Positions 19,256 to 37,012 of a DNA stretch of 64,000 bases are shown one piece after another. The notes below the pieces were generated by a model. It did no database searches. It was not told the DNA's origin and saw only the letters and a list, made by a program, of their open reading frames with translations. The position numbers and the translations under genes are program-made. Numbering within the stretch: the first letter of the stretch is position 1; the number at the start of each line of letters is the position of its first letter. This DNA comes from Patescibacteria group bacterium. Its GTDB lineage: Bacteria; Patescibacteriota; Minisyncoccia; Minisyncoccales; Staskawiczbacteraceae. Where the stretch lies: positions 49,643-113,642 of the forward strand of contig JBBTQL010000007.1 of the NCBI GenBank assembly GCA_038065715.1. The letters are read 5' to 3'.

Positions 19256-19346
19256 GTTAATGCCAATTTACGAATTATATGCTAATAATGCAAATTCGTA
19301 TTTGGGTCATTGGCGACGTCATTAGCTATATTTGCATTGTATTTAT

Positions 19347-19946
19347 ATGAAATTTATATTAGGCCAAAAAATTGGAATGTCCCAGCTATTTGATAAAGAC
19401 GGCAAGTTAACGCCAGTTACCTTGGTTTTGGCAGGGCCTTGTTATGTTTTGCAAAAAAAGACAAAAGAAAAAGACGGTTATAATGCTTTGCAGATTGGAT
19501 TTGAAAAAATAGAAAAGAAAAACAAAATCAAAAAATCAATGGCTGGAAAGGAATATAAATATATACGGGAATTCAGAATCCAGAATTCAGAATTTGAAAA
19601 AGATGGAGAAAAAGAAATTAATGTCGCTACTTTCAGCGAAGGAGAAAAAGTAAAAGTTTCAGGAATGTCAAAAGGCAAAGGATTTCAGGGCGGAGTTAAA
19701 AGGCACGGATTTTCAGGAAGAAACGCCACTCACGGCGTAAAGCATGAACACAGAACAATAGGTTCAACTGGTTCGCGTTTTCCTCAGCATGTTATTAAGG
19801 GCAGAAAAATGCCAGGTCGAATGGGATATGAAAGAATTACAGTTAAAAATTTGAAAATAGCGAAAATTGACGCAGAAAATAACTTGTTAATATTAAAGGG
19901 AGCAGTGCCCGGGCACAAGGGCACATTGCTTGAAATCAGAGGATAA
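19347..19946 (+). CDS. rplC: Ribosomal protein uL3
   Basis: MKFILGQKIGMSQLFDKDG...KGKGFQGGVKRHGF. Confidence 0.95.
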   Translation: MKFILGQKIGMSQLFDKDGKLTPVTLVLAGPCYVLQKKTKEKDGYNALQIGFEKIEKKNKIKKSMAGKEYKYIREFRIQNSEFEKDGEKEINVATFSEGEKVKVSGMSKGKGFQGGVKRHGFSGRNATHGVKHEHRTIGSTGSRFPQHVIKGRKMPGRMGYERITVKNLKIAKIDAENNLLILKGAVPGHKGTLLEIRG

Positions 19947-19953
19947 TTTAAAT

Positions 19954-20598
19954 ATGAAGGTAGATGTTTACAATCAATTAGGAGAGATATCCGGAAGTAT
20001 GATTTTGCCGAAAGAAATTTTTGAGGTAAAACTTAATACTGATTTAGTGCACCAAATTGTTGTTTCGCAAATGGCAAACAAACGCCAGGTTTCAGCCCAT
20101 ACAAAAGACAGAAGCGAGGTGAGGGGAGGAGGAAAAAAACCGTGGAGGCAAAAAGGAACAGGCAGGGCAAGGCACGGTTCAATAAGGTCTCCATTGTGGA
20201 GAGGCGGCGGAGTTACATTTGGACCAAGAAATGAAAAAGTGTTTGAAAAAGATGTTCCTAAAAAAATGAGGAGAAAAGCTTTGCTTATGGTTCTTTCCGA
20301 AAAAGCTAAGAATAATTTCTTGATTGTATTAGAAAGCCCCGCCTTCGCTGAAGCTACGGCGGGCAAAGCAAAAACAAAGGAGGTGGCAAAAATATTGAAA
20401 AAATTGCCAAGCAAAGATAAAACCCTATTGATTGCTTTGCCAGAATACGACAAAAATGTATTTCTGGCAGCCAGAAATATAAAAAAAACCAGCATTTCAG
20501 AAGCAAGAAATTTGAATGTTTTAGATTTAATGTCGTCTAAATATTTGTTAATGCCAAAAGAAAGCATAAAAACTATAGAAAAAACATTTCTAAAATAA
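19954..20598 (+). CDS. rplD: Ribosomal protein uL4
   Basis: ...GGGKKPWRQKGTGRARHGSIRSPLWRGGG. In-frame GC hairpin at 20337-20366. Confidence 0.95.
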   Translation: MKVDVYNQLGEISGSMILPKEIFEVKLNTDLVHQIVVSQMANKRQVSAHTKDRSEVRGGGKKPWRQKGTGRARHGSIRSPLWRGGGVTFGPRNEKVFEKDVPKKMRRKALLMVLSEKAKNNFLIVLESPAFAEATAGKAKTKEVAKILKKLPSKDKTLLIALPEYDKNVFLAARNIKKTSISEARNLNVLDLMSSKYLLMPKESIKTIEKTFLK

Positions 20599-20604
20599 AA
20601 TATC

Positions 20605-21039
20605 ATGGCTTTATTTGATTTTTTAAAAAAGAAAAAAGCAATAGAAAAAGCAAGGGAAACGGATAAAAAGTCCGAGAAAGTTTCGGCTGAAGGAAAACCC
20701 GCTGAAAAGGCAAAGCCTATTAAGGCGGACTCGCAACAATCTCGCCGAAAGGCGAGTTTGGGCGGGTTTTCTTACAACGCCATAAAAAATCCGCATATAT
20801 CAGAAAAAGCAACTGCTTTGGCAGAAAAAAACCAATATACTTTTAAAACATTGGCAGGCGCTAATAAAACAGAAATAAAAAAAACAGTGGAAGGAATTTA
20901 CGGGGTAGATGTTTTATCTGTAAATATAATAAAAATTCCAGCTAAAAAAAGAAGAATAGGAAAAACTAAAGGATTTAAATCGGGGCACATAAAAGCAATT
21001 GTAAAAATAAAAGAAGGCCAAGTAATTGAAATTTTTTAA
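20605..21039 (+). CDS. rplW: Ribosomal protein uL23 (N-terminally extended)
   Basis: C-terminal core ...ISEKATALAEKNQYTFKT...KTEIKKTVEGIYGVDVLSVNI. GC hairpin at 20741-20756 in the extension. Confidence 0.9.
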   Translation: MALFDFLKKKKAIEKARETDKKSEKVSAEGKPAEKAKPIKADSQQSRRKASLGGFSYNAIKNPHISEKATALAEKNQYTFKTLAGANKTEIKKTVEGIYGVDVLSVNIIKIPAKKRRIGKTKGFKSGHIKAIVKIKEGQVIEIF

Positions 21040-21870
21040 ATGAAAATATATAAACCAACAACGCCAGCTAGAAGAGGAATGACAGGGATAGATTTTTCGT
21101 TGCTTTCAAAAGAGCCAAGCGAAAAAAGGCTTTTAAAATACATTAAAAGAAGCGTGGGAAGATCAAAATCTACAGGAAGAATTACAGTAAGGCACAAAGG
21201 TGGCGGAGTAAAAAAACTTTACAGAATTATTGAATTTTCGCAAAAAAGAATGGACAGCCCCGCAAAAGTTGTTGCCTTAGAATATGATCCAAACAGGACA
21301 GGATTTATAGCTTTAATAGAGTACGATAATAGAGAAAGGCAATATATTATAGCTCCGCAAGGATTAAATGTTGGAGACAGTGTAGTTTTTTCCGAAAAAG
21401 CCCCGTTAACTCCGGGTAATAGAATGAAATTGAAAAATATAACAGTGGGAACAGCAGTTTATAATGTTGAATTAGAGCCTGGAAAGGGAGGAAAATTAAT
21501 AAGATCAGCAGGATCTTCGGCTCAGGTTTTGGCTCAGGAAGAAAATTATACGAATTTAAAAATGCCTTCAACCGAAGTTAGAAAATTCAGCAACGAATGT
21601 TTTGCAACAATAGGAATGGTTTCAAATCCAGAAAACAGATTTTACAGAGTTGGCAAGGCAGGCAAGTCAAGGTTAAAAGGCAGAAGGCCTCATGTAAGGG
21701 GCTCTGCAATGAATCCGGTAGACCATCCACATGGCGGCGGAGAGGGCAGGCAGCCAATTGGCTTAAAGCATCCAAAAACTCCGTGGGGAAAACCAGCTTT
21801 GGGAGTGAAAACAAGAAACAAGCGTAAATGGACAAATAAATTCATCGTTCAAAGAAGAAAGAAAAAATAA
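21040..21870 (+). CDS. rplB: Ribosomal protein uL2
   Basis: ...GRITVRHKGGG...VRGSAMNPVDHPHGGGEG. Confidence 0.97.
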   Translation: MKIYKPTTPARRGMTGIDFSLLSKEPSEKRLLKYIKRSVGRSKSTGRITVRHKGGGVKKLYRIIEFSQKRMDSPAKVVALEYDPNRTGFIALIEYDNRERQYIIAPQGLNVGDSVVFSEKAPLTPGNRMKLKNITVGTAVYNVELEPGKGGKLIRSAGSSAQVLAQEENYTNLKMPSTEVRKFSNECFATIGMVSNPENRFYRVGKAGKSRLKGRRPHVRGSAMNPVDHPHGGGEGRQPIGLKHPKTPWGKPALGVKTRNKRKWTNKFIVQRRKKK

Positions 21871-21882
21871 AAAAACAAAAAA

Positions 21883-22206
21883 ATGAGCAGAAGTTTAAAA
21901 AAAGGTCCATACATTGACCCAAAATTGTTAGAAAAAGTGTTAAAGCTCAGGAAAGACGAAAAGGTTATCATTAAAACATGGGCAAGGCACTCTACGATTT
22001 CTCCAGAAATGGTAGGCCATACTTTTGGGGTGCATAACGGCAAAGATTTTGTTCCAGTTCATATTGCAGAGGATATGGTAGGCCACAAGCTGGGCGAGTT
22101 TGCGGCTACAACAAAGTTTGTAAGACATGGAGGAAAAATGCAAAGAGAGATAGAGCAAACCGCAGAACAAAAAGAAGCGGTAAAAACAGCAGCAGAAAAG
22201 AAATAG
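21883..22206 (+). CDS. rpsS: Ribosomal protein uS19
   Basis: [12 protein letters not shown]...[10 protein letters not shown]...GHKLGEF. Confidence 0.95.
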
Positions 22207-22215
22207 CATAATAAC

Positions 22216-22644
22216 ATGGAAATTAAAGTAATATTAAGACATTTAAGAATATCGCCAAGAAAGGCAAGAGAAGTGGTTGATTTGGTAAGAGGTAAAAATG
22301 CGGCCGAGGCAAAAACCGCCCTTGAATTTGCGGTGAAAAGAGCATCGGCGCCTGTTTTAAAGCTTTTAAATTCAGCTGTTGCTTCAGCTAAACACGATTT
22401 TCAGATAGACGAATCAAATCTTTTTGTGTCTAAAATTACAGTAGATGAAGGCCCAACATTGAAAAGGTGGCATGCAATGTCTCGCGGCAGAGCTTATCCT
22501 ATAATGAAAAGAAGCTCGCATATTACTTTAGTATTGGGAGAAATAAATCCAACTGAAAAGAAAGAAACAAAAACCGAAAAAATTAAAGAAGTTAAAGCAG
22601 TAAAAAAGTTAAAAAAACAGCAAAAAAAAGTTAAAAAAACATAA
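22216..22644 (+). CDS. rplV: Ribosomal protein uL22 (Lys-rich C-terminal tail)
   Basis: LRISPRKAREVVDLVRGK...GPTLKRWHAMSRGRA. Confidence 0.93.
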   Translation: MEIKVILRHLRISPRKAREVVDLVRGKNAAEAKTALEFAVKRASAPVLKLLNSAVASAKHDFQIDESNLFVSKITVDEGPTLKRWHAMSRGRAYPIMKRSSHITLVLGEINPTEKKETKTEKIKEVKAVKKLKKQQKKVKKT

Positions 22645-22652
22645 TTCATAAT

Positions 22653-23306
22653 ATGGCTCACAAAGTCCACCCAAAATCATTTAGAATAAAAGGAACAGAA
22701 GATTGGAATGTCCGCGGTTTTTATGGCAAAAAAATGCCTCAGTATTTAGCGGAAGATTTTTTAATTAAAGATTTTTTAACAAAAAAATTGGCAGATGCTT
22801 CGGTTGCTAACATTGAAATTGAACATTCAGCAAACAAATTAAATATTATTATTGCAACAGGCAGGCCTGGATTAATTATAGGCAGAGGCGGAGGCGGAGT
22901 TGAAAATTTGAAAGATTTTATATTGAAAAAAATATATTCAAAAAAAATAGATAATACAAAAAGAGAGATAAAGATAGAAATTAGAGAAATAAAAAATCCT
23001 TGGATTTCAGCTCCTTTAATAGCTCAAATGGCAGCTCAGCAAATTGAAAAAAGAATACCATTCCGCCAAGTTTTAAAAAGAACAATAGAAAGAGTTATGG
23101 CAAACAGAGAGGTAAAGGGCATAAGGATAGAAATGTCAGGAAGATTAAATGGCGTTGAAATTGCCAGAAAAGAGTGGTTGAGGCAGGGCAGATTGCCAAG
23201 AAATACAATAAGAGCTGACATTGAATATAGCCAGGCAGAAGCGCATTGCACCTATGGGGCAGTAGGAATTAAAGTTTGGATATATAAAGGAGAAAAATTT
23301 GAATAA
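22653..23306 (+). CDS. rpsC: Ribosomal protein uS3
   Basis: MAHKVHPKSFR...KH domain...GRLNGVEIAR. Confidence 0.95.
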   Translation: MAHKVHPKSFRIKGTEDWNVRGFYGKKMPQYLAEDFLIKDFLTKKLADASVANIEIEHSANKLNIIIATGRPGLIIGRGGGGVENLKDFILKKIYSKKIDNTKREIKIEIREIKNPWISAPLIAQMAAQQIEKRIPFRQVLKRTIERVMANREVKGIRIEMSGRLNGVEIARKEWLRQGRLPRNTIRADIEYSQAEAHCTYGAVGIKVWIYKGEKFE

Positions 23307-23325
23307 CTAAAAATAAAAATTCGTT

Positions 23326-23736
23326 ATGAGTATTTTAATGCCGAAAAAAGTTAAACACCGCAAGTGGCACAGGGGAAGATCAAGAGGAGTTGAAACTAGG
23401 GCAACCGAGCTTACTTTTGGCAGTTTTGGATTAAAATCTTTGGGAACAAAATGGATAACTGCCCGCCAACTTGAAGCTTCAAGGCGTTATATAATAAGAT
23501 ATCTTAAAAAAGGAGGAAAGCTTTGGATAAGAATTTTTCCAGACAAACCAGTGACATTTAAGGGCGCTGAAGTTGGCATGGGAGGAGGAAAGGGAGGAGT
23601 TGACCATTATGTTTATCCTATAAAACCAGGCAGAATTATTTTTGAATTAGACGGCATAAAAGAAGATATGGCCAGAGCTGCATTTCGCGGAGCGTCAAAA
23701 AAATTGCCGATTAAAACCAGATTTATTAAAAAATAA
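23326..23736 (+). CDS. rplP: Ribosomal protein uL16
   Basis: LMPKKVKHRKWHRGR...GMGGGKG. Confidence 0.95.
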   Translation: MSILMPKKVKHRKWHRGRSRGVETRATELTFGSFGLKSLGTKWITARQLEASRRYIIRYLKKGGKLWIRIFPDKPVTFKGAEVGMGGGKGGVDHYVYPIKPGRIIFELDGIKEDMARAAFRGASKKLPIKTRFIKK

Positions 23737-23746
23737 AACTAAAACA

Positions 23747-23935
23747 ATGAAAGCAAAAGAACTTCGTAAAAAAGATAAAAATGAATTGGAAAAATCAGCA
23801 GAAGACCTTAGAAAAAAATTAAGCGGCCTTAGGTTTAAGTTTTCTTCTAATAAATTAAAGAATGTAAAAGAAATAAATCACGTGAAAAAAGAAATAGCGA
23901 GAACATTAACAGTATTAAAAGAACAAAAACAATAA
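23747..23935 (+). CDS. rpmC: Ribosomal protein uL29
   Basis: MKAKELRKKDKNELEK...LRFKFSSNKLKN. Confidence 0.9.
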   Translation: MKAKELRKKDKNELEKSAEDLRKKLSGLRFKFSSNKLKNVKEINHVKKEIARTLTVLKEQKQ

Positions 23936-23996
23936 GTAATCCTTCGCCCTTCGTCGTAGCGACTTCTCAGGGCTCAGGATGAATTTATTAAAATTC

Positions 23997-24230
23997 ATGC
24001 CAAAAAGAAAATTAAAGGGTGTTGTAGTTTCAGACAAGATGCAAAAAACAGTTGTTGTCAAAGTGGAAAAAGTTAAAGAACACCCAAAATACAAAAGAAG
24101 ATATAAAGTTCACAAGAAATATAAAGCCCATGACGAAAAGGGAGAATTTCACATTGGAGATAATGTTGTGATAGAAGAAACAACGCCTATATCAAAAGAT
24201 AAAAAATGGAAAGTAATAAATAAAATTTAG
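23997..24230 (+). CDS. rpsQ: Ribosomal protein uS17
   Basis: MPKRKLKGVVVSDKMQKTVVVKVE...KYKAHDE. Confidence 0.92.
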   Translation: MPKRKLKGVVVSDKMQKTVVVKVEKVKEHPKYKRRYKVHKKYKAHDEKGEFHIGDNVVIEETTPISKDKKWKVINKI

Positions 24231-24251
24231 TATTCACTTTGTTTATAAATT

Positions 24252-24620
24252 ATGATTCAATTAAGGTCGATGTTAAAAGTTGCCGATAACTCCGGGGCAA
24301 AAATTGTCCAGTGCATTAATGTTCCAGGCGGCACAAGAAGAAGATATGCTCAATTGGGAGATATAATTGTTGGAGTAGTAAAAAAAGCGGAGCCAAGAAA
24401 GTTAGTTAAAAAACATGAAAAGATTAAGGCTGTTATTATAAGGCAGAGAAAAGAATTTAAAAGAGCAGACGGTTCTTATATTAGGTTTGATGACAACGCC
24501 GTAGTTATTTTAGGAGACGGAAAAGCGCCGAAAGGAGGAAGGGTTTTCGGGCCTGTAGCAAAAGAATTAAAAGATAAAGGTTTTGATAAAATTGCTATGA
24601 TGGCAACCGAACTTTTATAA
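24252..24620 (+). CDS. rplN: Ribosomal protein uL14
   Basis: MIQLRSMLKVADNSGAK... Confidence 0.96.
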   Translation: MIQLRSMLKVADNSGAKIVQCINVPGGTRRRYAQLGDIIVGVVKKAEPRKLVKKHEKIKAVIIRQRKEFKRADGSYIRFDDNAVVILGDGKAPKGGRVFGPVAKELKDKGFDKIAMMATELL

Positions 24621-24629
24621 CTTAAAACA

Positions 24630-24935
24630 ATGAAAGTTAAAAAAAATGACACAATTTTAATAACCGCAGGCAAAGACAGAGGCAGAACCGGAAAAGTTTT
24701 AAGAGTTCTTGTTAAAGAAGAGGCTGTTTTAGTTGAAGGGATAAATTTAAAGAAAAAACACGCAAAACCGAAAAAAGAAGGCGAGAAGGGACAGGTTGTG
24801 CAGATTCCAGCGCCTTTAAATATTTCTAATATAAAAGTTATTTGTTCAAAATGCGGGAAGGCCACAAGGGTTGGATATAAAGTTGATAAAGAAAGAAAGG
24901 TCAGAGTTTGCAAAAAATGCGGACAAGAGATTTAA
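24630..24935 (+). CDS. rplX: Ribosomal protein uL24 (with C-terminal CxxC...CxxC)
   Basis: KOW motif KKNDTILITAGKDRGRTGKV. CSKCG...CKKCG tail. Confidence 0.93.
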   Translation: MKVKKNDTILITAGKDRGRTGKVLRVLVKEEAVLVEGINLKKKHAKPKKEGEKGQVVQIPAPLNISNIKVICSKCGKATRVGYKVDKERKVRVCKKCGQEI

Positions 24936-24950
24936 TATAAAGTTTTTAAC

Positions 24951-25505
24951 ATGCCAAGTTTAAAAGAAAAATATAAAAAAGAAGTAATACCGCAAATGAT
25001 GAAGTCTTTGGGTTATAAAAATCCTATGGCAGTTCCAAAGATTAAAAAAGTTGTGATAAATACTTCTTTTGGCAAGGAAGTTGCAAGCAAAACTTCCGGA
25101 GAGAGGGAAAAAATATACAATCTTATTTTGCAGGATTTAACTTTGATTTCAGGACAAAAGCCAAATTTAATAAAATCAAAAAAATCTATCGCCGGCTTTA
25201 AATTAAGGGAGGGGCTTGAGATAGCCGCAAAGGTTACATTAAGAAAGGGCAGAATGTGGGATTTTTTAGAAAGATTGATTTATTTGTCTTTGCCAAGGTC
25301 GCGCGATTTTAAAGGCATTGACTCAAAATCAATTGATAAAAGAGGAAATTTAACTATTGGATTTAGAGAACATATTTCATTTCCTGAAATTTTTACAGAA
25401 AAAGAAAAAACGATTTTTGGATTAGAAATTACTGTTGCGACTAATGCTAAAAATAAAGAAGAAAGTTTAGAATTATATAAATTAATGGGATTCCCAATAA
25501 AATAG
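24951..25505 (+). CDS. rplE: Ribosomal protein uL5
   Basis: ...NPMAVPKIKKVVINTSFG...FGLEITVATNA. Confidence 0.95.
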   Translation: MPSLKEKYKKEVIPQMMKSLGYKNPMAVPKIKKVVINTSFGKEVASKTSGEREKIYNLILQDLTLISGQKPNLIKSKKSIAGFKLREGLEIAAKVTLRKGRMWDFLERLIYLSLPRSRDFKGIDSKSIDKRGNLTIGFREHISFPEIFTEKEKTIFGLEITVATNAKNKEESLELYKLMGFPIK

Positions 25506-25511
25506 ACAAAA

Positions 25512-25697
25512 ATGGCAAAAACATCACAAATTGCAAAAGCAAAAAAGAAGCCAAAATATTCTTCAAGAAAAATAAGGCGCTGTTTTAAGTGCGGAAGAAG
25601 AAGGGGATTTATAAGGAGTTTTGGCCTTTGCAGAATATGTTTTAGGGAATTAGCCAATAAAGGAGAAATTCCAGGAATTAAAAAATCAAGCTGGTAA
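25512..25697 (+). CDS. rpsN: Ribosomal protein uS14, short zinc-ribbon (type Z) form
   Basis: 61 aa. [23 protein letters not shown]. Confidence 0.93.
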
Positions 25698-25712
25698 ATA
25701 AAAAATAAAAAT

Positions 25713-26102
25713 ATGACAGACCCAATTACAGACATGTTAAATCAAATAAGGAATGCAGGAGCTGTTGGCAAAACAGAGCTGTCTTTGCCTTCTTCAAAAT
25801 TAAAATTTGAAGTTGCTAAAATTTTAATGCAGGAAAATTTTATTTCCGATGTTAAAAAAACAGCCAAAGGAAAAAGCAAAACGATGAAAATTGTTTTAAA
25901 GTACGACAACGGAATTATGGCGATTTCAGGGTTGAGAAAAGTTTCAAAGCCAGGACAGAGAATTTACGCAAAAGCGTCTGAAATTAAAAATGTTAAAGGA
26001 GGTTACGGCATATCAGTGGTTTCAACTCCAAAAGGATTAATGACAAATAAAGAAGCCAGGAAAGTAAAATTGGGAGGGGAGATATTATTGGAAATTTGGT
26101 AA
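25713..26102 (+). CDS. rpsH: Ribosomal protein uS8
   Basis: MTDPITDMLNQIRNA... Confidence 0.95.
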   Translation: MTDPITDMLNQIRNAGAVGKTELSLPSSKLKFEVAKILMQENFISDVKKTAKGKSKTMKIVLKYDNGIMAISGLRKVSKPGQRIYAKASEIKNVKGGYGISVVSTPKGLMTNKEARKVKLGGEILLEIW

Positions 26103-26111
26103 CACCTTAAA

Positions 26112-26140
26112 TTGACCAAAGTCAAAAAATAAGATATAAT
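26112..26140 (+). promoter_or_regulatory. Internal sigma70-like promoter between rpsH and rplF
   Basis: TTGACC(26112-17)-17 nt-TATAAT(26135-40) inside an unusually long 99-nt spacer. Confidence 0.45.
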
Positions 26141-26201
26141 AGTAAATTCATATTGCCAATAATAAAAGAAATTAGGAAATTATTTTAAAAAATAGAAATT
26201 C

Positions 26202-26759
26202 ATGAGCAGGATTGGAAAAAAACCAATTGAAATTCCAGAGGGTGTAAAAGTTGATATTCAGGGTCAAAACCTGAAGATTTTAGGTCCAAAAGGGGAGTTG
26301 CAAATACAGCTAAACAGGGAAGTAAAAGTGGATATTGACGAGAATGGAAAGAATATTTTAGTTTCTAAACGCAAAGAAACAGCTACTGGAAAAGCAGGGG
26401 CTTTATGGGGCCTGTACAGGGCGCTTATATTTAATATGGTATATGGAGTTACAAAAGGTTTTGAAAAAAAATTAGAAATAGAAGGAGTTGGCTTCAAAGC
26501 TATGATTGATGGCGATAATCTAGTTTTGAATGTGGGTTTTGTAAATCCAGTTAAAATTAAAAAACCAGAAGGCATTAATTTTTTGGTAGAGAAAAATGTA
26601 ATTACTGTTTCTGGCATAAATAAAGAAAAAGTCGGTCAAATTTCAGCAATAATAAGAAAAGTAAAAAAAGCCGAACCTTATAAGGGTAAAGGAATAAAAT
26701 ATCAAGGAGAAAAAATTAGAAGAAAAGAGGGCAAGAAAGTTGTTTCAGCTAAAAAATAG
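26202..26759 (+). CDS. rplF: Ribosomal protein uL6
   Basis: [17 protein letters not shown]... Confidence 0.95.
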
Positions 26760-26784
26760 AAATGCTTCGCATTTATATAATAAA

Positions 26785-27156
26785 ATGCAGACAAAAAAAG
26801 AAAAAAGAATAAGGCGCCATAAAAAGATAAGATTTAAAATTAAGGGCAGTAAAGACCGCTTGCGCCTTTGTGTTTTTAGGTCTATAAATCATATTTACGC
26901 CCAGGTCATTGACGACAAAAATGCAAAAATTATTGTGTCGGCTTCAGATAAAGAATTAAAAGGAGTAAAAGCAAACAAAACAGAAAAAACAATGACGCAT
27001 AAAGTAGGCATTGCCCATGAAGTTGGCAGGCTGATTGCAAAAAAGGCTATTGAAAACAAAATAGAAAAAGTGGTTTTTGACAGGGCTGGAATTCTTTTTC
27101 ATGGCAGAATAAAGGCATTGGCCGATGGAGCAAGAGAAGGAGGGCTTAAATTTTAA
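26785..27156 (+). CDS. rplR: Ribosomal protein uL18
   Basis: ...[18 protein letters not shown]...[28 protein letters not shown]. Confidence 0.93.
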
Positions 27157-27170
27157 AACAAATTTAAAAA

Positions 27171-27770: not shown

Positions 27771-27830
27771 AGTTCATAAAGTTCATCAAGTATGAAACTT
27801 TACAAACTTGATAAACTTTAAACTACGATT

Positions 27831-29555: not shown

Positions 29556-29625
29556 GTGTTAGATATTAGGTGTTAGATATTGAAATTATTAACTAACACC
29601 CAAAACCCAACACCCAACACCCAAT

Positions 29626-30330
29626 ATGAAGCAAGTTATAATTATATTCGGCCCTCCGGGAGCTGGAAAAGGCACTCAATCTGAATTATTATCAGAAAAA
29701 TTAGGATTATATCTTTTTGAAACCAGTAAAATTTTAGAGAAAAAATTTAAAGAAGCAGAAAATTTATCTGAAAATGCAAAAGAAAGATTTATTAAAGCTG
29801 ACGGTGAAAAGTTTGATATTTTAAAAGAAAAAGAAAAATGGGGAAGCGGAGAGCTTAATAGTCCTCCGTTTGTCACACAATTAGTAAAAGAAAAAATAAA
29901 TAATATTTTTGAAGAAGGAAATAATATTATTTTTTCTGGTTCTCCAAGAACTCTTTATGAAGCAGAAAGAGTTATACCTTTGCTTGAAAAACTTTACGGA
30001 AAAGAAAACATAAAAGTTGTTTTATTGGAAATTACAGCTGAAACAACAATTTTTAGAAACTCCCACAGAAAAATTTGCGAATTAATGCGCCACTCAATTT
30101 TATTTAACAAAGAAACTGAAAACTTGACTATTTGCCCGTTAGACGGCTCAAAATTAGTTAAAAGAAAAGATTTAGATGACGAGGAAACCATTAAAGTAAG
30201 AATTAAAGAATATAACGAAAGAACTTTGCCAATGGTTGAATATTTTGAAAAAAATAATATCAAGATAAACAAAATTAATGGCGAGCAATTTGTGGCAGAT
30301 GTTCATAAAGATATTTTAAAAGTAATTTGA
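29626..30330 (+). CDS. adk: Adenylate kinase
   Basis: P-loop GPPGAGKGTQ. Position after secY. Confidence 0.85.
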   Translation: MKQVIIIFGPPGAGKGTQSELLSEKLGLYLFETSKILEKKFKEAENLSENAKERFIKADGEKFDILKEKEKWGSGELNSPPFVTQLVKEKINNIFEEGNNIIFSGSPRTLYEAERVIPLLEKLYGKENIKVVLLEITAETTIFRNSHRKICELMRHSILFNKETENLTICPLDGSKLVKRKDLDDEETIKVRIKEYNERTLPMVEYFEKNNIKINKINGEQFVADVHKDILKVI

Positions 30331-30378
30331 TGATTACAATAAAATTTCAGAATAGAGACCCGATCTCTATTATCTCTA

Positions 30379-31125
30379 ATGATAAATATCAAAAGCTCAG
30401 AAGAAATTAAAATAATGAGAGAGGCCGGGAGAATCCTGGCGGCAGTTTTAAAAGAAATAGAAAAACAAGTTAAGCAGGGAATTACTACCTTAGAATTGGA
30501 CAGGGCCGCTGAGGCCCTTATTTTAAAACACGAAGCTAAGCCGGGTTTTAAAGGGTATGATAATTTCCCTTTTTCTTTGTGCACTTCAGTTAATGAAGAA
30601 ATTGTGCATGGACTTCCATCTACCAGAGTTTTAAAAGAAGGGGATATAATTAGCTTGGATTTAGGAATTTTATACAAAGGATACTACTCTGATATGGCAA
30701 TAACCGTTGCTGTCGGCAAAGTTTCTTTTGAAGCAAAAAGATTGATTAATGTTGCAAAAAAATCTTTAAGATTGGGAATTAAAAAAGTGAGGCCGGGCAA
30801 TACAACAGGCGACATTGGAAATACTATTCAAAAATTTGTTGAAGGACAGGGCTTTTCAGTTATAAGGGATTTGTGCGGCCATGGAATTGGAAAAAATCTT
30901 CACGAAGAACCTAAAATTCCAAATTTTGGAAAAAGAAAAACCGGCGAAAAGCTCCAAGAAGGCATGGTCATTTGCATAGAGCCAATGGTGGCAATGGGCG
31001 ATTACCGCCTTGAAAAAGCGCAAGACGGCTACGGATACGCCACCAAAGATAAGTCTCTAACAGCCCACTTTGAGCACACAATATTGGTTACAAAATTCGG
31101 TTCAAAAGTGTTAACTGAAATATAA
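30379..31125 (+). CDS. map: Methionine aminopeptidase type I
   Basis: ...VHGLPS...DLGILYKGYYSDMA...GHGIG..LHEEP...IEP...HFEHT. Confidence 0.95.
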   Translation: MINIKSSEEIKIMREAGRILAAVLKEIEKQVKQGITTLELDRAAEALILKHEAKPGFKGYDNFPFSLCTSVNEEIVHGLPSTRVLKEGDIISLDLGILYKGYYSDMAITVAVGKVSFEAKRLINVAKKSLRLGIKKVRPGNTTGDIGNTIQKFVEGQGFSVIRDLCGHGIGKNLHEEPKIPNFGKRKTGEKLQEGMVICIEPMVAMGDYRLEKAQDGYGYATKDKSLTAHFEHTILVTKFGSKVLTEI

Positions 31126-31184
31126 CGAGAGGCGGACTTCAACCGTCTTTTGTTTTATGATAAAATAAAATAACATAATTTAAT

Positions 31185-31937
31185 ATGAAAAATTTAATTG
31201 TAGCCAATTGGAAATTAAATCCATCAACCCAAAAAGAAGCCAAAGCTCTTTTTCAGGCTGTTAAAAAAAAAGCGAAAGTAAAAAATGTGGAAGTAGTTAT
31301 CTGTCCGCCTTTTGCTTGGCTCGCCGAAGGACGCCGGCAGGCGGCCGAAGGCGGCTTTATTTTAGGGGCACAAAACTGTTTTTTTGAAGAAAAAGGAGCT
31401 TTTACTGGAGAAATTTCTGTTTTAATGTTGAAAGATTTAAAAATTGATTATGTTATTTTGGGGCACTCAGAGCGCAGAAAATACTTTAATGAGACAGACG
31501 AAATTGTAAATAAAAAAATTAAAAAAGTTTTGTCTGCAAACTTAAAGCCTATTTTGTGCATTGGCGAAACAGACGAAGAGAGGCAGGCTGGAAAAAAATC
31601 AGAAGTTTTAGAAAAACAAATTACAGGGGGTTTGAAAGGAGTTTTAAGAGAAAACGCAAAAACCGTTGTTATTGCCTATGAGCCAGTTTGGGCGATTGGG
31701 ACGGGAAATAATTGTTCGGTTGACGAAACAATGAGTTCCGTTTTATTCATAAGAAAAATTATTTCAAAAATATATAACAGGGAAATAGCAGACAATATGC
31801 GGATTTTATATGGCGGAAGCGTCAAAAGCGAAAATTCTGGTTCTTATATTAAAGACGCGGGAGCCAACGGCCTTTTAGTCGGCGGAGCATCTTTAAATGC
31901 TGAAGAATTTATTAAGATTGTAAAATCTGCAGAGTAG
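31185..31937 (+). CDS. tpiA: Triosephosphate isomerase
   Basis: NWKLN...GHSERR...AYEPVWAIGTG...GGASL. In-frame GC-rich insert at 31318-31356. Confidence 0.93.
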   Translation: MKNLIVANWKLNPSTQKEAKALFQAVKKKAKVKNVEVVICPPFAWLAEGRRQAAEGGFILGAQNCFFEEKGAFTGEISVLMLKDLKIDYVILGHSERRKYFNETDEIVNKKIKKVLSANLKPILCIGETDEERQAGKKSEVLEKQITGGLKGVLRENAKTVVIAYEPVWAIGTGNNCSVDETMSSVLFIRKIISKIYNREIADNMRILYGGSVKSENSGSYIKDAGANGLLVGGASLNAEEFIKIVKSAE

Positions 31938-31952
31938 TGGTATGTTATATTT

Positions 31953-32531
31953 ATGAATGACGAGATAGTAAACAATGGGCATTTTTTTAATCCAAGCAAG
32001 GGAAATTTGAATTTTGACGAAGTAATAAAAGAGATTAAAAGCTATATTCAGGAGCAGCCTGAATTTTTTTATGATATTGTTGTTGGGTGCGATTCGCCGT
32101 CTTCTGATAAGCCGTTTTTTCCAATTGCTATTGTTGTATTAAGAACTGGAGCTGGCGGAAGATTCTTTTTAAAAAAAATGCGTTATCCAGATAACTTTTT
32201 AAAAAAGTTTGCCAATATTAATTGGAAAAACAGAATTTTGCAGGAAGTTTATTTGTCGTGCGAGCTGGCATTGTCTTTAAGGGAAAGATTAAATGAGGAA
32301 TTTGGTCCCGATTGCAAAGCAATCGCGGATCCTCGATGGCAAAGCCATCGGGACAAAGCCACTTCAACATTTAATTATCAATTTCAATATATTCATGCTG
32401 ATGTAGGGGAGGTTGGTAAAACAAAAGAAATGGTGAAAGAAGTTGTTGGGTTAATAAAAAGCAATGGCTTTGAACCATGCATAAAACCAAAATCTTTTGC
32501 GGCAACTGTTGTGGCAGACAGATTTACATAA
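31953..32531 (+). CDS. YkuK/DUF458-like RNase H-fold protein (tentative)
   Basis: FNPSKGNLNFDEVIKEI...IVVGCDS...IAIVVLRTGAGGRFF pattern (family recalled from memory). Compound in-frame GC hairpin at 32305-32354. Confidence 0.45.
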   Translation: MNDEIVNNGHFFNPSKGNLNFDEVIKEIKSYIQEQPEFFYDIVVGCDSPSSDKPFFPIAIVVLRTGAGGRFFLKKMRYPDNFLKKFANINWKNRILQEVYLSCELALSLRERLNEEFGPDCKAIADPRWQSHRDKATSTFNYQFQYIHADVGEVGKTKEMVKEVVGLIKSNGFEPCIKPKSFAATVVADRFT

Positions 32532-32792
32532 ACTTCGCTCGGCAATCAAATTTTAAATTTTAAAATTTATTGCCTCGCTAATATTCAGATACGCTCAAAA
32601 CGGCGTTTTTTTACGTGTTTCTAAGGTGTGTAATAATGGTGCGTACGCACACTTATTACACACTTGTTTTTAGAATAAGAAATAGCTCAAACGTGTCTGA
32701 GCTATTTTGAGGAAGTGTTTACTATGTAGTAATTAAGGTACAGTATATTAAATATTGCGAGAAAATGATTTTTGAGGTAAAATTAGAAAATC

Positions 32793-34571
32793 ATGAAATC
32801 TGACGAACTACGCCAACGATTTTTAAGTTTTTTTGAGAAAAGGGGGCATAAAATTATTCCCAGCGGTTCTTTAGTTCCAGAAAATGATCCAACGGTTTTA
32901 TTCACAACAGCTGGCATGCATCCTTTGGTGCCTTTTTTGTTAGGTGAAAAACATCCGTCTGGCAAAAGATTAGTTAACGCTCAAAAATGCATAAGGACAG
33001 GAGATATTGATGATGTTGGCGACGATACTCATAATACTTTTTTTGAAATGCTGGGAAATTGGTCTTTGGGCGATTATTGGAAAAATGAAGCCATAAAATG
33101 GAGTTTTGAATTTTTAACAAAAGAGCTGGAAATTCCTTTAGAAAGATTGGCTGTTTCTTGTTTCGCTGGTGATAACGATGCAGAAAAAGACGAAGAATCG
33201 GCAAAAATTTGGGAATCTTTGGGAGTTAAAAAAGAAAGAATTGCCTTTTTGCCAAAAGAAGATAATTGGTGGGGGCCTGCAGGAAAAACAGGACCATGTG
33301 GTACTGATACAGAAATGTTTTATTGGAAATTAAATGACAAACCAGCGCCAGAAATTTTTGACGCAAAAGATAAAAATTGGGTTGAAATTTGGAATGATGT
33401 TTTCATGCAATATATAAAAAATGAAAACGGGAATTACATTGAGGCAAAGCAAAAAAATGTAGATACTGGAATGGGTTTAGAAAGAACGCTTGCAGTTTTA
33501 AATGGAAAAGAAAACGTTTATGAAACTGATTTATTTTTGCCGATTATTAAAAAAATTGAGGAATTATCTGAAAAAAAATATGAGGATAATAAAAAGGCAT
33601 TCAGAGTTATTGTTGACCATATAAAGGCATCAGTGTTTCTTTTAGCTTCTGAAATTGAGCCGTCAAATTTAGGCAGGGGATACATTTTAAGAAGATTGAT
33701 TCGCAGGGCAATAAGATATGGAAAACAGTTGAGTATCAAAGAAAATTTTATTGGTGAAATTTATCCCGCAATTTTAGAAGTTTATAATGGATTTTACCCC
33801 GAAATAGAAAATAAAAAAGATTTTATTTTAGAGCAGTTTAAGTCAGAAGAAGAAAAATTTGAAAAAACTTTAGAAAACGGATTAAGGGAATTTATCTCGC
33901 TTTGCGAGAGCTCGCATAGCGAGATAAAATTAGACAATATATCTGGCAAGGATGCTTTTAATCTTTATCAAACTTATGGATTTCCGATTGAATTGACGGA
34001 AGAAATAGCAAAAGAAAAGGGAATGAATATTGATGTTGAGGAATTTAAAAAAGAATTAGAAAAACATCAGGAACTTTCAAGAACAGCGGGCGCGGGAATG
34101 TTTCGAGGCGGGTTGGCAGATAATTCTGAGCAAACTACAAAACTGCATACCGCCGCCCATTTAATGCTGGCTGGATTAAGAAAAGTTTTGGGCGGGCATG
34201 TTGCGCAAAAAGGAAGCAATATTACTGCCGAAAGATTGCGTTTTGATTTTTCGCACAAAGAAAAAATGACCAGTGAACAAATAAAAGGTGTAGAAAATTT
34301 TGTAAATGGTATAATAAAGAAAGACTTGCCTGTAAGCTTTGAAGAAATGAATTTAGAAAAAGCTAAAGAGCTAAACGCTATGGGAGTTTTTGAATCAAAA
34401 TACGGGGAAAAAGTTAAAGTTTATACTATTGGCGAGGGCAATGAAATTGCAAGCCGCGAAATTTGCGGCGGGCCGCATGTTGAGAAAACAGGAGTTTTAG
34501 GGCATTTTAAAATTATAAAAGAAGAAAGCTCCTCATTTGGAGTCCGTAGAATAAAAGCAATACTTGAGTAA
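32793..34571 (+). CDS. alaS: Alanyl-tRNA synthetase, short form (592 aa; no C-terminal C-Ala domain)
   Basis: FTTAGM..., GNWSLGDYWK, WWGPAG..GPCGTDTE, editing-domain HTAAHL...CGGPHV. In-frame palindrome at 33893-33926. Confidence 0.93.
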   Translation: MKSDELRQRFLSFFEKRGHKIIPSGSLVPENDPTVLFTTAGMHPLVPFLLGEKHPSGKRLVNAQKCIRTGDIDDVGDDTHNTFFEMLGNWSLGDYWKNEAIKWSFEFLTKELEIPLERLAVSCFAGDNDAEKDEESAKIWESLGVKKERIAFLPKEDNWWGPAGKTGPCGTDTEMFYWKLNDKPAPEIFDAKDKNWVEIWNDVFMQYIKNENGNYIEAKQKNVDTGMGLERTLAVLNGKENVYETDLFLPIIKKIEELSEKKYEDNKKAFRVIVDHIKASVFLLASEIEPSNLGRGYILRRLIRRAIRYGKQLSIKENFIGEIYPAILEVYNGFYPEIENKKDFILEQFKSEEEKFEKTLENGLREFISLCESSHSEIKLDNISGKDAFNLYQTYGFPIELTEEIAKEKGMNIDVEEFKKELEKHQELSRTAGAGMFRGGLADNSEQTTKLHTAAHLMLAGLRKVLGGHVAQKGSNITAERLRFDFSHKEKMTSEQIKGVENFVNGIIKKDLPVSFEEMNLEKAKELNAMGVFESKYGEKVKVYTIGEGNEIASREICGGPHVEKTGVLGHFKIIKEESSSFGVRRIKAILE

Positions 34572-34677
34572 ATTTTCAATTTTCAATTTTCAATTTTCAT
34601 TAAATTTTCAATTAATTAATTTTTAAATTAGAAATTTAATATAAATTAGAAATTAGAAATTAGAAATTAAATTGAAA

Positions 34678-36024
34678 ATGCCAAAGAAAATATATGATAT
34701 AGTGCCGCCAAAAGCAAAACATCCTGCCTGGCGGCAGGCAGGCAAAACAGCGGTCGTAAAAAAAATAACAGCCAGCGAAGAAAAAAATCTGCCTGCCGCG
34801 CCTCGGCATGCAGAACATACAGCGAAAAAATCTCATAAGGAAGTCCGCCGCCATAAGGCCGTAAATTTTTCGTGGACAAAAGTTTTGGCTGTAGTTGGTT
34901 CTGCAATAGTTTTGGCATTAGCAATATTTTTTTATTTTAAATTGCAAAAAGCAGATATAGAAATTTGGCCTAAAACAGAAACTTTAAGTTTTTCGCAAAA
35001 AATAATTGCAGATAAATCAGTTGATTTTATTGATATAAATAAAAACACTATTCCAGCCCAGCTCTTAGAAGAAGAAAAAGATTTATCGCAGGAGTTTTCT
35101 TCAAGCGGACAAGCCCAAAATGACAGCAAGGCAAAAGGCGCTGTTAAAGTTTTTAATAGTTATGAGCCGTTTTCACCCATTACTTTGGTTGCTGGAACGC
35201 ATCTTTTATCTGATTCGGGAAAATACTTTATAACTTTGAAAAAAATTACTGTGCCAGCTGCAAAAAAAGTGAGCGGAAAAATTGTTCTGGGATCTGTTGA
35301 TGCAGCTGTTGAAGCTAAAAATACAGGAAGTGATTATAATGTAGGCCCATCTAAATTTTCTTTTCCAAAACTTGCCGGAACTCCTTATTATTACAGCATT
35401 TTTGCAAGTTCATCTGGTTCTATGGCGGGAGGATTTGAAAAAAATGTTAAACTGGTTACAGACGGCGACATTCAAAACGCAAAAGACACTTTAGTTAAAA
35501 AACTTTTAAACGATGCGGAGGCAGGTTTAAGAAGCAAGATTTCTTCAGACCAAGTTCTCTTTGATAATGGGATTATAACTGCTATAGTTGAGGCCTTGCC
35601 CTCGGTAAAATCGGGAGCTACTGCAGAAAAATTTAATTATCAGGCAAAAGTTAAGGCAACGGCTTTAGTATTTAAAAAACAAGATTTAGAAAAATTAACA
35701 AAAGATTATATTCTTTTTCAAACTCAAGATTCAAAAATTATTTTAGATAAAAGTTTTTCAATAAATTATACGCCGGATTTATTAGACATAAAAGGAGGCA
35801 AAATAATTCTTAATTCTAATTTTTCAGCAAAAATATATCAAACAATTAACAAAGACAGCTTAACTATCTTAGTTTCCCGTAAAACACAGGACGAAGTTAT
35901 AAATATTATTAACAGCAATATCGGAGACAGTATTTCTCTGGTTAAAGTTAATTTTTGGCCATTTTGGACGCAGAAAACGCCAGGAGATGCGGGGAAGGTC
36001 AAAATTAACTTAAATTTTGACTAG
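34678..36024 (+). CDS. Hypothetical membrane-anchored protein
   Basis: MPKKIYDIVPP..., one TM helix, then a large beta-rich ectodomain. Two GC hairpins in the N-terminal tail (34723-34742, 34788-34814). Confidence 0.55.
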   Translation: MPKKIYDIVPPKAKHPAWRQAGKTAVVKKITASEEKNLPAAPRHAEHTAKKSHKEVRRHKAVNFSWTKVLAVVGSAIVLALAIFFYFKLQKADIEIWPKTETLSFSQKIIADKSVDFIDINKNTIPAQLLEEEKDLSQEFSSSGQAQNDSKAKGAVKVFNSYEPFSPITLVAGTHLLSDSGKYFITLKKITVPAAKKVSGKIVLGSVDAAVEAKNTGSDYNVGPSKFSFPKLAGTPYYYSIFASSSGSMAGGFEKNVKLVTDGDIQNAKDTLVKKLLNDAEAGLRSKISSDQVLFDNGIITAIVEALPSVKSGATAEKFNYQAKVKATALVFKKQDLEKLTKDYILFQTQDSKIILDKSFSINYTPDLLDIKGGKIILNSNFSAKIYQTINKDSLTILVSRKTQDEVINIINSNIGDSISLVKVNFWPFWTQKTPGDAGKVKINLNFD

Positions 36025-36071
36025 GGTATTGACCTTTATCCTTTAATTTGTTAGAATTAGGAATTACAAAA

Positions 36072-36317
36072 ATGGTATTAAACGAGAGCAAAAATAATCA
36101 AAATTCTAAAAAAGTAATTAAAAAAGAGGGCAGGGTTATAGAAGCCTTGCCAAATGCTTTTTTTAAGATAGTGTTTGATGATGGAAAAGAGGCATTGGGA
36201 TTTCTTTCTGGCAAGATGAAACTTAACAGAATTACCATTTTACCGGGTGATAAAGTAACTGTGGAAATGAGCCCTTATGATGAAAGCAAAGCAAGAATTG
36301 TTTACAGGCTAAAATAA
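36072..36317 (+). CDS. infA: Translation initiation factor IF-1
   Basis: ...EGRVIEALPNAFFKIVFDDGKEALGFLSGKMKLNRITILPGDKVTVEMSPYD. Confidence 0.93.
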   Translation: MVLNESKNNQNSKKVIKKEGRVIEALPNAFFKIVFDDGKEALGFLSGKMKLNRITILPGDKVTVEMSPYDESKARIVYRLK

Positions 36318-36323
36318 TATAAT

Positions 36324-36440
36324 ATGAAAGTCAGGCCATCGATAAAAAAAATTTGCAATGATTGTAAAATTGTCCGCAGGGAGGGCAGGCTTTATGTTAT
36401 TTGCAGAAAAAATCCGAAACACAAACAACGCCAAGGATAA
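36324..36440 (+). CDS. rpmJ: Ribosomal protein bL36 (38 aa; below the ORF-track cutoff)
   Basis: Hand translation [38 protein letters not shown]. Confidence 0.93.
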
Positions 36441-36533
36441 TATTGTAATTCGAATGACGCGAATTAAATGCGAATAACACGAATATATATTTGTGGCATG
36501 CGCATATTATTCGTAAATTCGCATTATACTTAT

Positions 36534-36923
36534 ATGCCGCGTATATCAGGGGTAAACATCCCAGAAAACAAAAGAGTAGAAATAGCTTTAACCTATATTT
36601 ATGGAATAGGCAGGAGTTTGAGCCAAAAAATTTTAAAAGAGGTTAAAATAGATATAAACAAAAAAGCGCAGGATTTAACTCCTAAAGAAGTTAACGATTT
36701 AAAAGATATTATTGAAAAAAGTTATAAAATAGAAGGAGATTTGCGAAGGCAAATTATGATAAACATTAAAAGGCTTAAAGATATTGGTTCTTATCGCGGC
36801 TCGCGTCACGCTAAAAAATTGCCTGCTCGCGGCCAAAGGACAAAAACTAATAACAGAACAATAAGGGGAAATGTCAGAAAAACAATTGGCTCGGGAAGAA
36901 AGCCAGCCGCAACGCCAACATAG
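36534..36923 (+). CDS. rpsM: Ribosomal protein uS13
   Basis: MPRISGVNIPENKRVEIALTYIYGIG... Confidence 0.95.
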   Translation: MPRISGVNIPENKRVEIALTYIYGIGRSLSQKILKEVKIDINKKAQDLTPKEVNDLKDIIEKSYKIEGDLRRQIMINIKRLKDIGSYRGSRHAKKLPARGQRTKTNNRTIRGNVRKTIGSGRKPAATPT

Positions 36924-37012
36924 TATAATGCGAATAACGCGAATTGAATGCTAATAACGCCAATACGATTCGCAGTATTCGCATATCATTTGTAAATTAG
37001 CATTATATTTAT

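Follow-up and report, generated by a model that had tools for sequence, protein, structure and literature searches.

Hairpin-forming repeats have been described close to genes in several groups of bacteria. The Correia hairpins of Neisseria are substrates of RNase III, and the BOX elements of pneumococci contain tandem sub-repeats. Here we analyse an element of about 90 nt that lies directly upstream of three ribosomal-protein genes, rplC, rpsM and rpsK, in a 64,000-nt stretch of DNA from a Patescibacteria group bacterium (contig JBBTQL010000007.1, positions 49,643 to 113,642), referred to below as the window. [quoted passage not shown] Catalytically dead TIGR-Tas effectors, which use paired 9-nt spacers, occur in CPR bacteria including Staskawiczbacteria (bioRxiv 10.64898/2026.09.09.750476). 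Dead TasR and TasA repress transcription, and their natural targets are unknown (same source).

A preliminary description of the window had interpreted the three leaders as carrying a covarying 9-bp helix that acts in translation initiation, possibly as an autoregulatory ribosomal-protein binding site. This interpretation is borne out in part. A hairpin-forming design adjoining three start codons is real and apparently undescribed, and it is neither a gene-specific covarying helix nor a ribosomal-protein operator. [quoted passage not shown] The family, here called AATGC, belongs to a larger class of tandem-unit palindromes found in 5′ untranslated regions (5′-UTRs) and intercistronic spacers of Paceibacteria.

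Tandem-unit palindromes upstream of rplC, rpsM and rpsK

Each leader contains the exact inverted pair of 9-mers previously reported. At rplC the pair is AATGCAAAT (19287-19295) and ATTTGCATT (19330-19338), followed by ATG 19347; at rpsM it is AATGCGAAT (36467-36475) and ATTCGCATT (36517-36525), followed by ATG 36534; and at rpsK it is AATGCTAAT (36947-36955) and ATTAGCATT (36996-37004), followed by ATG 37013. An additional pair in the rpsK leader consists of AATGCGAAT (36927-36935) and ATTCGCAT (36977-36984). The loops between the 9-mers measure 34, 41 and 40 nt at rplC, rpsM and rpsK, respectively, and the central bases A, G and T are matched by T, C and A as claimed. Spacers of 8 nt (GTATTTAT, ATACTTAT and ATATTTAT) separate the second 9-mer from the start codon, and Pfam matches confirm that L3, S13 and S11 begin at these ATGs. 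A lone 9-mer is not enriched in the window (11 matches against 9.2 expected). The composite AATGCNAAT-N25-50-ATTNGCATT occurs three times, at these sites only, and not once in 100 dinucleotide shuffles. The inverted pattern is thus real and not a product of chance.

The pattern is embedded in a longer repeat. In a ten-member alignment of the AATGC family, the arms each consist of about four near-identical units of 8-10 nt in tandem, whose consensus is (A/T)A(T/C)GCGAAT in the 5′ arm and ATT(C/T)G(C/T)A in the 3′ arm. Because each 9-mer is one of three or four near-identical tandem units, an exact partner for the last 3′ unit is much less improbable than it would be for a unique helix. The termini TATAATGC...GCATTATA are inverted repeats and close the minimum free energy (MFE) fold in most family members. 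Window copies open with TATAATGC, TATTGTAAT or GTTAATGC and finish with GCATT(A/G)TA.

All three copies lie on the + strand and were delimited by pattern search and sequence. The rplC copy (19258-19346) fills the interval between a terminator-like hairpin and ATG 19347. Its 5′ units are AATGCCAAT (19259-67), TTACGAAT (19268-75), ATGCTAAT (19279-86) and AATGCAAAT (19287-95), and its 3′ units are ATTCGTAT (19294-19301), ATTGGCGAC (19307-15), ATTAGCTAT (19319-27) and ATTTGCATT (19330-38), with the tail GTATTTAT (19339-46) directly before the start codon. The rpsM copy (36441-36533) begins 2-6 nt past the rpmJ stop codon. It has the 5′ units ATTCGAATG, ACGCGAAT, AATGCGAAT and AACACGAAT and, past the loop, ATTTGTGG, CATGCGCAT, ATTATTCGT and ATTCGCATT, with the tail ATACTTAT leading to ATG 36534. 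The rpsK copy (36924-37012) begins immediately past the TAG stop codon of rpsM and is composed of TATAATGCGAAT, AACGCGAAT, AATGCTAAT and AACGCCAAT on the 5′ side and ATTCGCAGT, ATTCGCAT, ATTTGTAA and ATTAGCATT on the 3′ side, with the tail ATATTTAT before ATG 37013.

A reading frame is open across the rpsM hairpin (36468-36533). The public S13 call (L196 gene 1456-1911) starts inside the repeat, at the ATG at 36468, and gives a protein of 151 amino acids. The conserved S13 start, MPRI..., lies at 36534 and gives 129 amino acids, so the public call is 22 codons longer, through the hairpin.

Gain, loss and inversion of the elements

The window was compared with the 80 best loci, which represent Candidatus Staskawiczbacteria, Nealsonbacteria and other Paceibacteria. 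SecY of the window is 88% identical to that of a metagenome-assembled genome (MAG) from Hainich groundwater, and the exact S11 protein was found solely on Hainich H43 contigs, of which the longest measures 123 kb. The rpsK copy is unchanged across four independent assemblies of one population. In the orthologous rplC, rpsM and rpsK leaders of the 80 related genomes the element is absent. The two genomes nearest by S11 (85-87% identity) have short or unrelated spacers. Orthologous leaders of the nearest genomes that do without the element are at odds with the proposal of a conserved translation-initiation-region structure.

A metagenome scan with the 3′ end of the element, ATTNGCATTRTAYTTATATG, plus ATG returned 115 matches, and at least 17 distinct contexts carry the same array element before genuine start codons. 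The genes that follow, on unrelated CPR contigs, include leuS, a response regulator, groES, atpC, an accC-like gene, rpsR, rpmC, an ftsX-like gene, rpsG and rpoA. Copies at unrelated genes and genomes align with local scores of 40-59; shuffled sequences reach 19 at most. The motif GTAG appears only within units of some of the metagenome copies (ATTCGTAG). In L114 the groES copy is downstream of a TTGACA-16-TAAAAT promoter and, by our reading, also of a CIRCE operator, which would place it in the 5′-UTR. Because the same element precedes non-ribosomal genes such as leuS, groES and atpC, and is absent from relatives' rplC, rpsM and rpsK leaders, it is not the ribosomal-protein autoregulatory site suggested earlier. 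Viral contigs gave six pattern matches, none of them in an array context.

The sole ortholog of the window's rplC element is in the rplC leader of L088, a related species that inhabits the same aquifer; the rpsM and rpsK elements have no ortholog, the nearest genomes (S11 identity up to 87%) being without the element. When flipped, the L088 rplC element matches the window's rpsK copy with 84% identity over 82 nt. A clean inversion is also seen between the orthologous leaders of L106 and L146, in which a 78-nt palindromic core is inverted while the flanks remain collinear, and the alignment score rises from 67 to 98 after the core is inverted. Flipped-type arms are present in the TTGACA family as well. 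Overall, the elements are gained and lost, exchanged for others and inverted at the level of DNA, and their sequence is common to unrelated genes and genomes. Their placement extends from 0-4 nt past the upstream stop codon, or from past a promoter, to about 8 nt before the start codon.

Predicted folding and apparent covariation

The MFE folds of the three leaders are long imperfect hairpins (z = -1.8 to -2.6), with 24-36 predicted pairs per element. This exceeds the 20 bp expected of an RNase III site between cistrons, as a matter of prediction. In most family members the fold is closed by AUAAUGC/GCAUUAU, leaving 3-7 nt before the AUG. The rpsM leader is predicted to form a single long nested hairpin (-27.6 to -29 kcal/mol, z = -2.2) closed by UGUAAU/AUUAUA, with 5 nt remaining before the AUG. 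In the rplC leader, unit 1 pairs with ATTGGCG and unit 2 with AATTCGT, and in the rpsK leader units 1-2 pair with ATTCGCAGT/ATTCGCAT (z = -2.6). The 9-bp helix of the preliminary description is not the predicted fold. Its pair probability is at most 0.007 in all three leaders, and forcing it costs 2.6, 3.7 and 7.8 kcal/mol. Many pairing registers are possible, because all units resemble one another.

The compensatory changes at the centre of this helix had been taken as the classic signature of a selected helix, a signature that does not prove robust. Across the ten-member alignment the central pair is GC in three sequences, UA in two and broken in five. Of about 20 independent leaders that carry the same 3′ unit, three have an exactly complementary AATGCnAAT partner, two have a non-complementary one and the others have none. 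What looks like a compensatory base is probably one unit pairing with one of several alternative partners. A nested hairpin topology leaves 87.1% of alignment cells paired and has a covariation score of 0.114, equalled by 92 of 500 shuffles. The pseudoknot-type topology a-b-a′-b′, which includes the 9-bp helix, leaves 88.3% paired, and neither topology is clearly preferred by counts. Arms exchanged between sequences still pair at 86%. Arm complementarity is thus due to the shared unit consensus, since swapped arms pair nearly as well (86%) as native ones (87-88%).

Structured RNA under selection would normally show an excess of G·U mismatches and a sense strand that folds better than the antisense. 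Arm mismatches are G·U in 182 cases and A·C in 165, which is no excess. The sense strand has the lower MFE in 58 cases and the antisense in 81 across the class, with a tie of 11 to 11 in the AATGC family.

Comparison with known RNA families returned no assignment. An Rfam search of the whole window at gathering thresholds gave no match, and permissive searches of both regions gave sub-threshold noise only. No description of such leaders in CPR bacteria was found in the searchable literature, in agreement with the preliminary description, whose author was aware of no described leader of this form. Two candidate identities were also rejected. For a Bacteroidetes-type or sigma-70 promoter at the 3′ end, a consensus scan was not above background and the groES copy is itself downstream of a strong promoter and CIRCE. 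For an intrinsic terminator, no GC stem with a T-run is present within the three elements, and other families have no U-rich tails.

Start-site context

The three leaders had been singled out as lacking a Shine-Dalgarno (SD) sequence. They do lack one, as does the rest of the window. SD-like 4-mers are upstream of 6 of 64 window genes, compared with 13% of random 17-nt windows, and the 20 nt preceding window starts are 83% A+T (50% A, 33% T). The whole genome appears to do without SD sites, and the missing SD would not be peculiar to the rplC, rpsM and rpsK leaders; as SD-like 4-mers are not above random across 64 genes, "SD-less" describes the genome rather than three leaders. Predicted start-site accessibility of rplC, rpsM and rpsK (0.34-0.58) is ordinary, the window median being 0.53.

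The 8-nt spacing, said to be invariant, is identical at the three sites. It is not a general constraint, as variants are spaced otherwise, and across the wider hairpin class the 3′ tail has a median of 8 nt with an interquartile range (IQR) of 5-12. The 8 nt, RTAYTTAT, are the 3′ terminus of the AATGC sub-family, and the spacing comes partly from the terminal inverted repeat.

A wider class of tandem-unit hairpin leaders

Other leaders in the window are built from different A/T-rich units, lie downstream of promoter-like sites and adjoin an ATG, namely those of tuf, a GlxA-like gene, a DUF5679 gene, a short-chain dehydrogenase/reductase (SDR) gene and fusA. The tuf 5′ leader hairpin (17462-17554, + strand), with AATTTGAAAT-type tandem units, ends 6 nt before ATG 17561 and has an MFE of -21.2 (z = -3.75). 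Promoter-like sites upstream of it are TTGTCA-17-TATAAT (17354-17382) and TTGACT-17-TAAGAT (17419-17447). The leader of the GlxA-like gene (34572-34677, + strand; gene start 34678) contains four ATTTTCA units and, further on, four AATTAGA units, and the orthologous spacer in relatives has hairpins of other units (L204 682-771; L014 between alaS and g34678). The hairpin leader of the DUF5679 gene (8762-8832, + strand, z = -2.77) ends 7 nt before ATG 8840 and is downstream of TTGACT-17-TAAAAT (8690-8718). The fusA (14480-14549) and SDR (7780-7889) leaders contain the A/T-rich tandem units AAATTTAG and TAAAAAT. There is no significant fold in the fusA leader (z = +0.6), and arrays therefore exist without hairpins. 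Tandem repeats of a C/A-rich ACACCCAA type, again with no hairpin, are present at 29596-29625, upstream of an adenylate-kinase-like gene, and at 58930-59030, in the spacer before 59124.

The class also occurs in the ribosomal-protein operons of some relatives. The ribosomal-protein cluster has a median intercistronic gap of 3-11 nt across the 80 loci. Within these relatives, 229 ribosomal-protein spacers are 55-200 nt long, and 153 of them fold with z < -2.5. The 95 spacers with a single hairpin have a median length of 97 nt, a 5′ tail of 3 nt and a 3′ tail of 8 nt (IQR 5-12); their unpaired remainder is 11 nt, compared with a median of 5 (IQR 2-13) for native gaps. L014 and L003, two Staskawiczbacteria RIFCSPHIGHO2 MAGs, have a tandem-unit hairpin of 80-130 nt at almost every ribosomal-protein junction. 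Their hairpin families are CAATTGACA/TGTCAAATG, GAATCTnGAAT/CAAGATTC, CTAAAyC/TTTAGAA and CCGAAAT/ATTTCGA, and some combinations of junction and family are common to the two genomes while others differ. A small hairpin, TTTCTTTTACGAAGTAAAAG(C), also recurs 0-4 nt before several ATGs in L003 and L014, often past a larger tandem-unit hairpin; examples are rplV->rpsC, rplE->rpsZ, rplO->secY and alaS->next gene.

A conserved hairpin upstream of the rplC repeat and other window features

A terminator scan identified a hairpin on the + strand (19224-19255 including its upstream partner), separate from the repeat, with the stem and loop CTGGC-AAGCAC-GCCAG and a following T-run (19234-19255). An upstream TTGCCA (19224-29) can pair with TGGCAA (19235-40). 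The same terminator-like hairpin and T-run recur in 31 of 36 rpsJ-rplC spacers of Paceibacteria. The upstream 5-7-mer, complementary to the 5′ half of the stem and to the loop, covaries among them (GGCAAT/ATTGCC, GGCTAT/ATAGCC and GGGTTAG/CTAACCC). The distance from this hairpin to the rplC ATG is 12-25 nt in relatives and 97 nt in the window, because the rplC repeat lies between. The hairpin, within window positions 19176-19257, has no Rfam match. It is this upstream hairpin, and not the 9-bp helix, that is the candidate regulatory leader, a putative attenuator of the interior of the S10 operon.

Two intervals of the window run from promoter to terminator with no open reading frame (ORF) or Rfam match, one at 11075-11305 (TTGACA..TTAATAT to GACACTCAAAAAAATTGAGTGTTTTTTT) and the other at 44345-44505 (TTGACT..TATAAT to TCCCCTCCCGGGGATTTTTT), and both may be small RNAs. 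Possible leaderless genes are represented by TGGTAATAT-AAAATA-ATG (12067-12097) and TTGCAA-N16-TAAAAT-AATAGC-ATG (44835-44876). A single ORF of 2712 codons occupies 49911-58049.

A probable dispersed repeat and its alternatives

A repeat of this kind could be tolerated even within a ribosomal-protein operon if it were looped out of the message. Elements would be co-transcribed with their genes, and the RNA would fold into an imperfect hairpin of 30-35 bp that removes the insertion from the spacer. The short A/U-rich single strand left before the AUG would then be akin to the 3-11-nt spacers that are native to this SD-less lineage. Effects on the processing or stability of mRNA, if any, would be generic and secondary rather than gene-specific regulation. 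A co-opted role in processing, stability or translation is nevertheless possible.

Several observations weigh against this explanation. Identity between the rplC elements of the window and L088 is 83%, where flanking third codon positions are 49-66% and flanking coding DNA overall 70-81% identical, and both rplC 9-mers are invariant. Such conservation speaks against neutral decay and would imply purifying selection, concerted evolution or a recent exchange. Comparison of filled and empty sites at rpsS->rplV, rpmJ->rpsM and rpsM->rpsK revealed no target-site duplication; the elements at the filled sites begin right past the stop codon. No transposase is present among the 20 proteins scanned from the 64-kb window. 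In about 5 of 17 family members the 3′ array and tail are retained and the 5′ arm is missing, which a pure hairpin model does not explain. In the AATGC family, pseudoknot-type covariation shows a modest excess (0.144 vs 0.105), equalled by only 6 of 500 shuffles, a signal that stems from the inner hairpin formed by units 1-2 with the first two 3′ units, and in the TTGACA family G·U mismatches outnumber A·C by 10 to 2. Together these two results make some RNA-level selection possible. The rpmJ->rpsM and alaS->next junctions bear hairpins of different sequence in different genomes, and such recurrence could point to a functional requirement and not to a hot spot for insertion. In addition, the metagenome sample was picked by the 3′ end plus ATG, so that its adjacency to start codons follows in part from the selection itself.

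Some alternative readings place a function in the RNA. As a co-opted processing or stability module, they would be RNase III substrates or 5′-end protectors between cistrons, as in the early region of phage T7, cutting the operon RNA into units with short A/U-rich leaders or stabilising the downstream cistron. Predicted 30-35-bp helices that fall exactly between cistrons suit such a role, as do genomes with a hairpin at nearly every ribosomal-protein junction, the recurrence of differing hairpins at the same junctions, and the sequence constraint to which the window-L088 comparison points. We consider this rather unlikely, given that most relatives have 3-11-nt spacers with no hairpins, which makes the module dispensable, that copies without a 5′ arm persist, and that G·U shows no overall asymmetry over A·C. 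Selection for a translation-initiation structure, a standby element fixed 8 nt upstream of the AUG that loads or positions ribosomes without an SD, is unlikely too. An SD-less genome needs another start-site cue, the hairpins end near start codons and precede highly expressed genes (tuf, ribosomal-protein genes, groES), and the rplC copy with its invariant 9-mers is conserved beyond synonymous sites between two species. The proposed helix nonetheless accounts for less than 1% of the ensemble and its central pair is broken in half of the ten sequences; spacing varies among variants and in the class (IQR 5-12 nt); AUG accessibility is ordinary, no G·U excess marks the sense strand and the core is invertible. 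Most genes, most ribosomal-protein genes and the orthologous leaders of relatives also manage without any hairpin. Recognition of a leader hairpin or pseudoknot by a ribosomal protein (such as S4 in the case of the alpha operon, or L4/L3 in that of the S10 operon) is largely refuted. The start of rpsM and the interior of the S10 operon match E. coli operator positions, a-b-a′-b′ pairing of pseudoknot type is possible, and Alpha_RBS weakly matches 36461-36566 (17.9 bits, E = 0.12), but that score is far under the gathering threshold of 38. Three different ribosomal proteins would have to share one site, the family occurs before non-ribosomal genes and is not kept in orthologous leaders, and the regulatory-looking conserved part of the rplC leader is the separate upstream hairpin.

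Other readings place a function in the DNA. It is very unlikely that the repeat is a promoter cassette, or terminator plus promoter, with a TTCGCA-like -35 and a CATTAT -10 placed 6 nt before the ATG to give leaderless or near-leaderless rplC, rpsM and rpsK transcripts. The rpsK sequence does read TTCGCA-N17-CATTAT-N6-ATG, its 5′ end (36924-36929) is a perfect TATAAT, and in two other window genes (12095 and 44874) exactly 6 nt separate a -10-like hexamer from the ATG. A scan of 36300-37100, however, found no site on the + strand and one in total (- strand) against 3.4 expected, the rplC region gives only weak 9-of-12 sites, and the recognisable promoters of the window are canonical TTGACx-17-TATAAT. 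Other families of the class have unrelated units, and an internal promoter in L114 would bypass the control of the strong promoter and CIRCE upstream. DNA-level operator arrays, in which 9-bp units in both orientations are bound by a protein or by an RNA-guided repressor such as a dead TIGR-Tas effector, would fit direct and inverted arrays of 9-nt units just upstream of genes, the copies that keep a direct array only, and the lack of RNA-strand asymmetry. The unit length also equals that of the 9-nt TIGR spacer (bioRxiv 10.64898/2026.09.09.750476). This explanation is highly improbable: other class members use unrelated units with periods of 7-10 nt, which no single binding specificity fits, and the window has neither a TIGR unit nor a tas-like neighbour. 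For the class as a whole, it is distinctly unlikely that tandem-unit hairpins are a lineage-wide functional device, whether in RNA, by bridging stop and start or being cleaved for SD-free initiation of internal cistrons, or in DNA, as 9-bp operator arrays through which TIGR-Tas repressors tune the translation apparatus. If true, either device would represent a new principle for the expression of operons in a very large and uncultured section of the bacterial tree.

A dispersed palindromic repeat, the explanation we favour, has consequences of its own. Repeated units mimic covariation, and automated RNA-motif hunters and human readers will continue to take such elements for conserved regulatory leaders; the elements also mislead gene callers, as with the extended S13. 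In a streamlined CPR genome, palindromes of 80-130 nt can saturate even the operon that is most conserved and most highly expressed. An operon in this condition is informative on how internal cistrons are translated without SD pairing. If the hairpins proved to be processed, or to be needed for re-initiation, they would offer an experimental handle on gene expression in bacteria not yet grown alone.

Comparison with known systems

The elements share features with several described systems. Like the RNase III sites of the phage T7 early region, they place a long irregular hairpin between neighbouring cistrons of a single transcription unit. The T7 sites are single-copy, conserved and experimentally cleaved, whereas the sequences described here are repetitive and evolutionarily unstable, and their hairpins are predicted. 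The S4 pseudoknot of the E. coli alpha operon (RF00140) is likewise a structured leader at the start of rpsM that overlaps the initiation region. Unlike RF00140 and other ribosomal-protein leaders, the present elements fail the covariance model, are not specific to ribosomal proteins and are not conserved among orthologs. TIGR stem-loop arrays, known from phages and from CPR bacteria including Staskawiczbacteria, resemble them in palindromic stems, 9-nt modules and poorly conserved sequence. A TIGR array has two single-stranded spacers, while the elements here are almost fully base-paired. Under the published rule, which calls for two boxC(CNA)-N9-boxD(YG) intervals at most 15 nt apart and a flanking stem of at least 8 bp (bioRxiv 10.64898/2026.09.09.750476), the three leaders contain no units, and no unit anywhere in the window has a stem of 8 bp or more. 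No tas (Nop-domain) gene adjoins the elements, whose neighbours are rpsJ, rplC, infA, rpmJ, rpsM, rpsK, rpsD and rpoA.

The closest parallels are with interspersed repeats. Like the REP/BIME (REPIN) sequences of Proteobacteria, the elements are short imperfect extragenic palindromes that are multi-copy and lineage-specific; they lie between cistrons inside operons, are probably co-transcribed as hairpins and differ in presence and absence among relatives. REP/BIME sequences are 20-40 nt long and lie at the 3′ ends of genes, whereas the elements here are about 90 nt, have arms made of tandem 8-10-nt sub-units and adjoin start codons. Window copies have no terminal GTAG or CGTC tag, and no RAYT transposase was seen among the 20 scanned proteins of the 64-kb window. 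The resemblance to MITEs, such as Neisseria Correia/NEMIS and pneumococcal BOX/RUP elements, extends to a size of 50-150 nt, terminal inverted repeats (TATAATGC...GCATTATA), dispersal in gene-near intergenic DNA and probable co-transcription into long hairpins. MITEs generally are taken to be 50-500 bp long, with terminal inverted repeats and dispersed copies, and to be polymorphic for presence at orthologous sites. The AATGC element is about 90 nt long with such termini, has three copies in 64 kb and at least 17 contexts elsewhere, and is present or absent at orthologous sites. Unlike Correia-like MITEs, it has no visible target-site duplication and no known parent insertion sequence. What sets the class apart from Correia and BOX elements is that it saturates the ribosomal-protein operon in some genomes, that its core flips by inversion, and that its host is an SD-less CPR bacterium.

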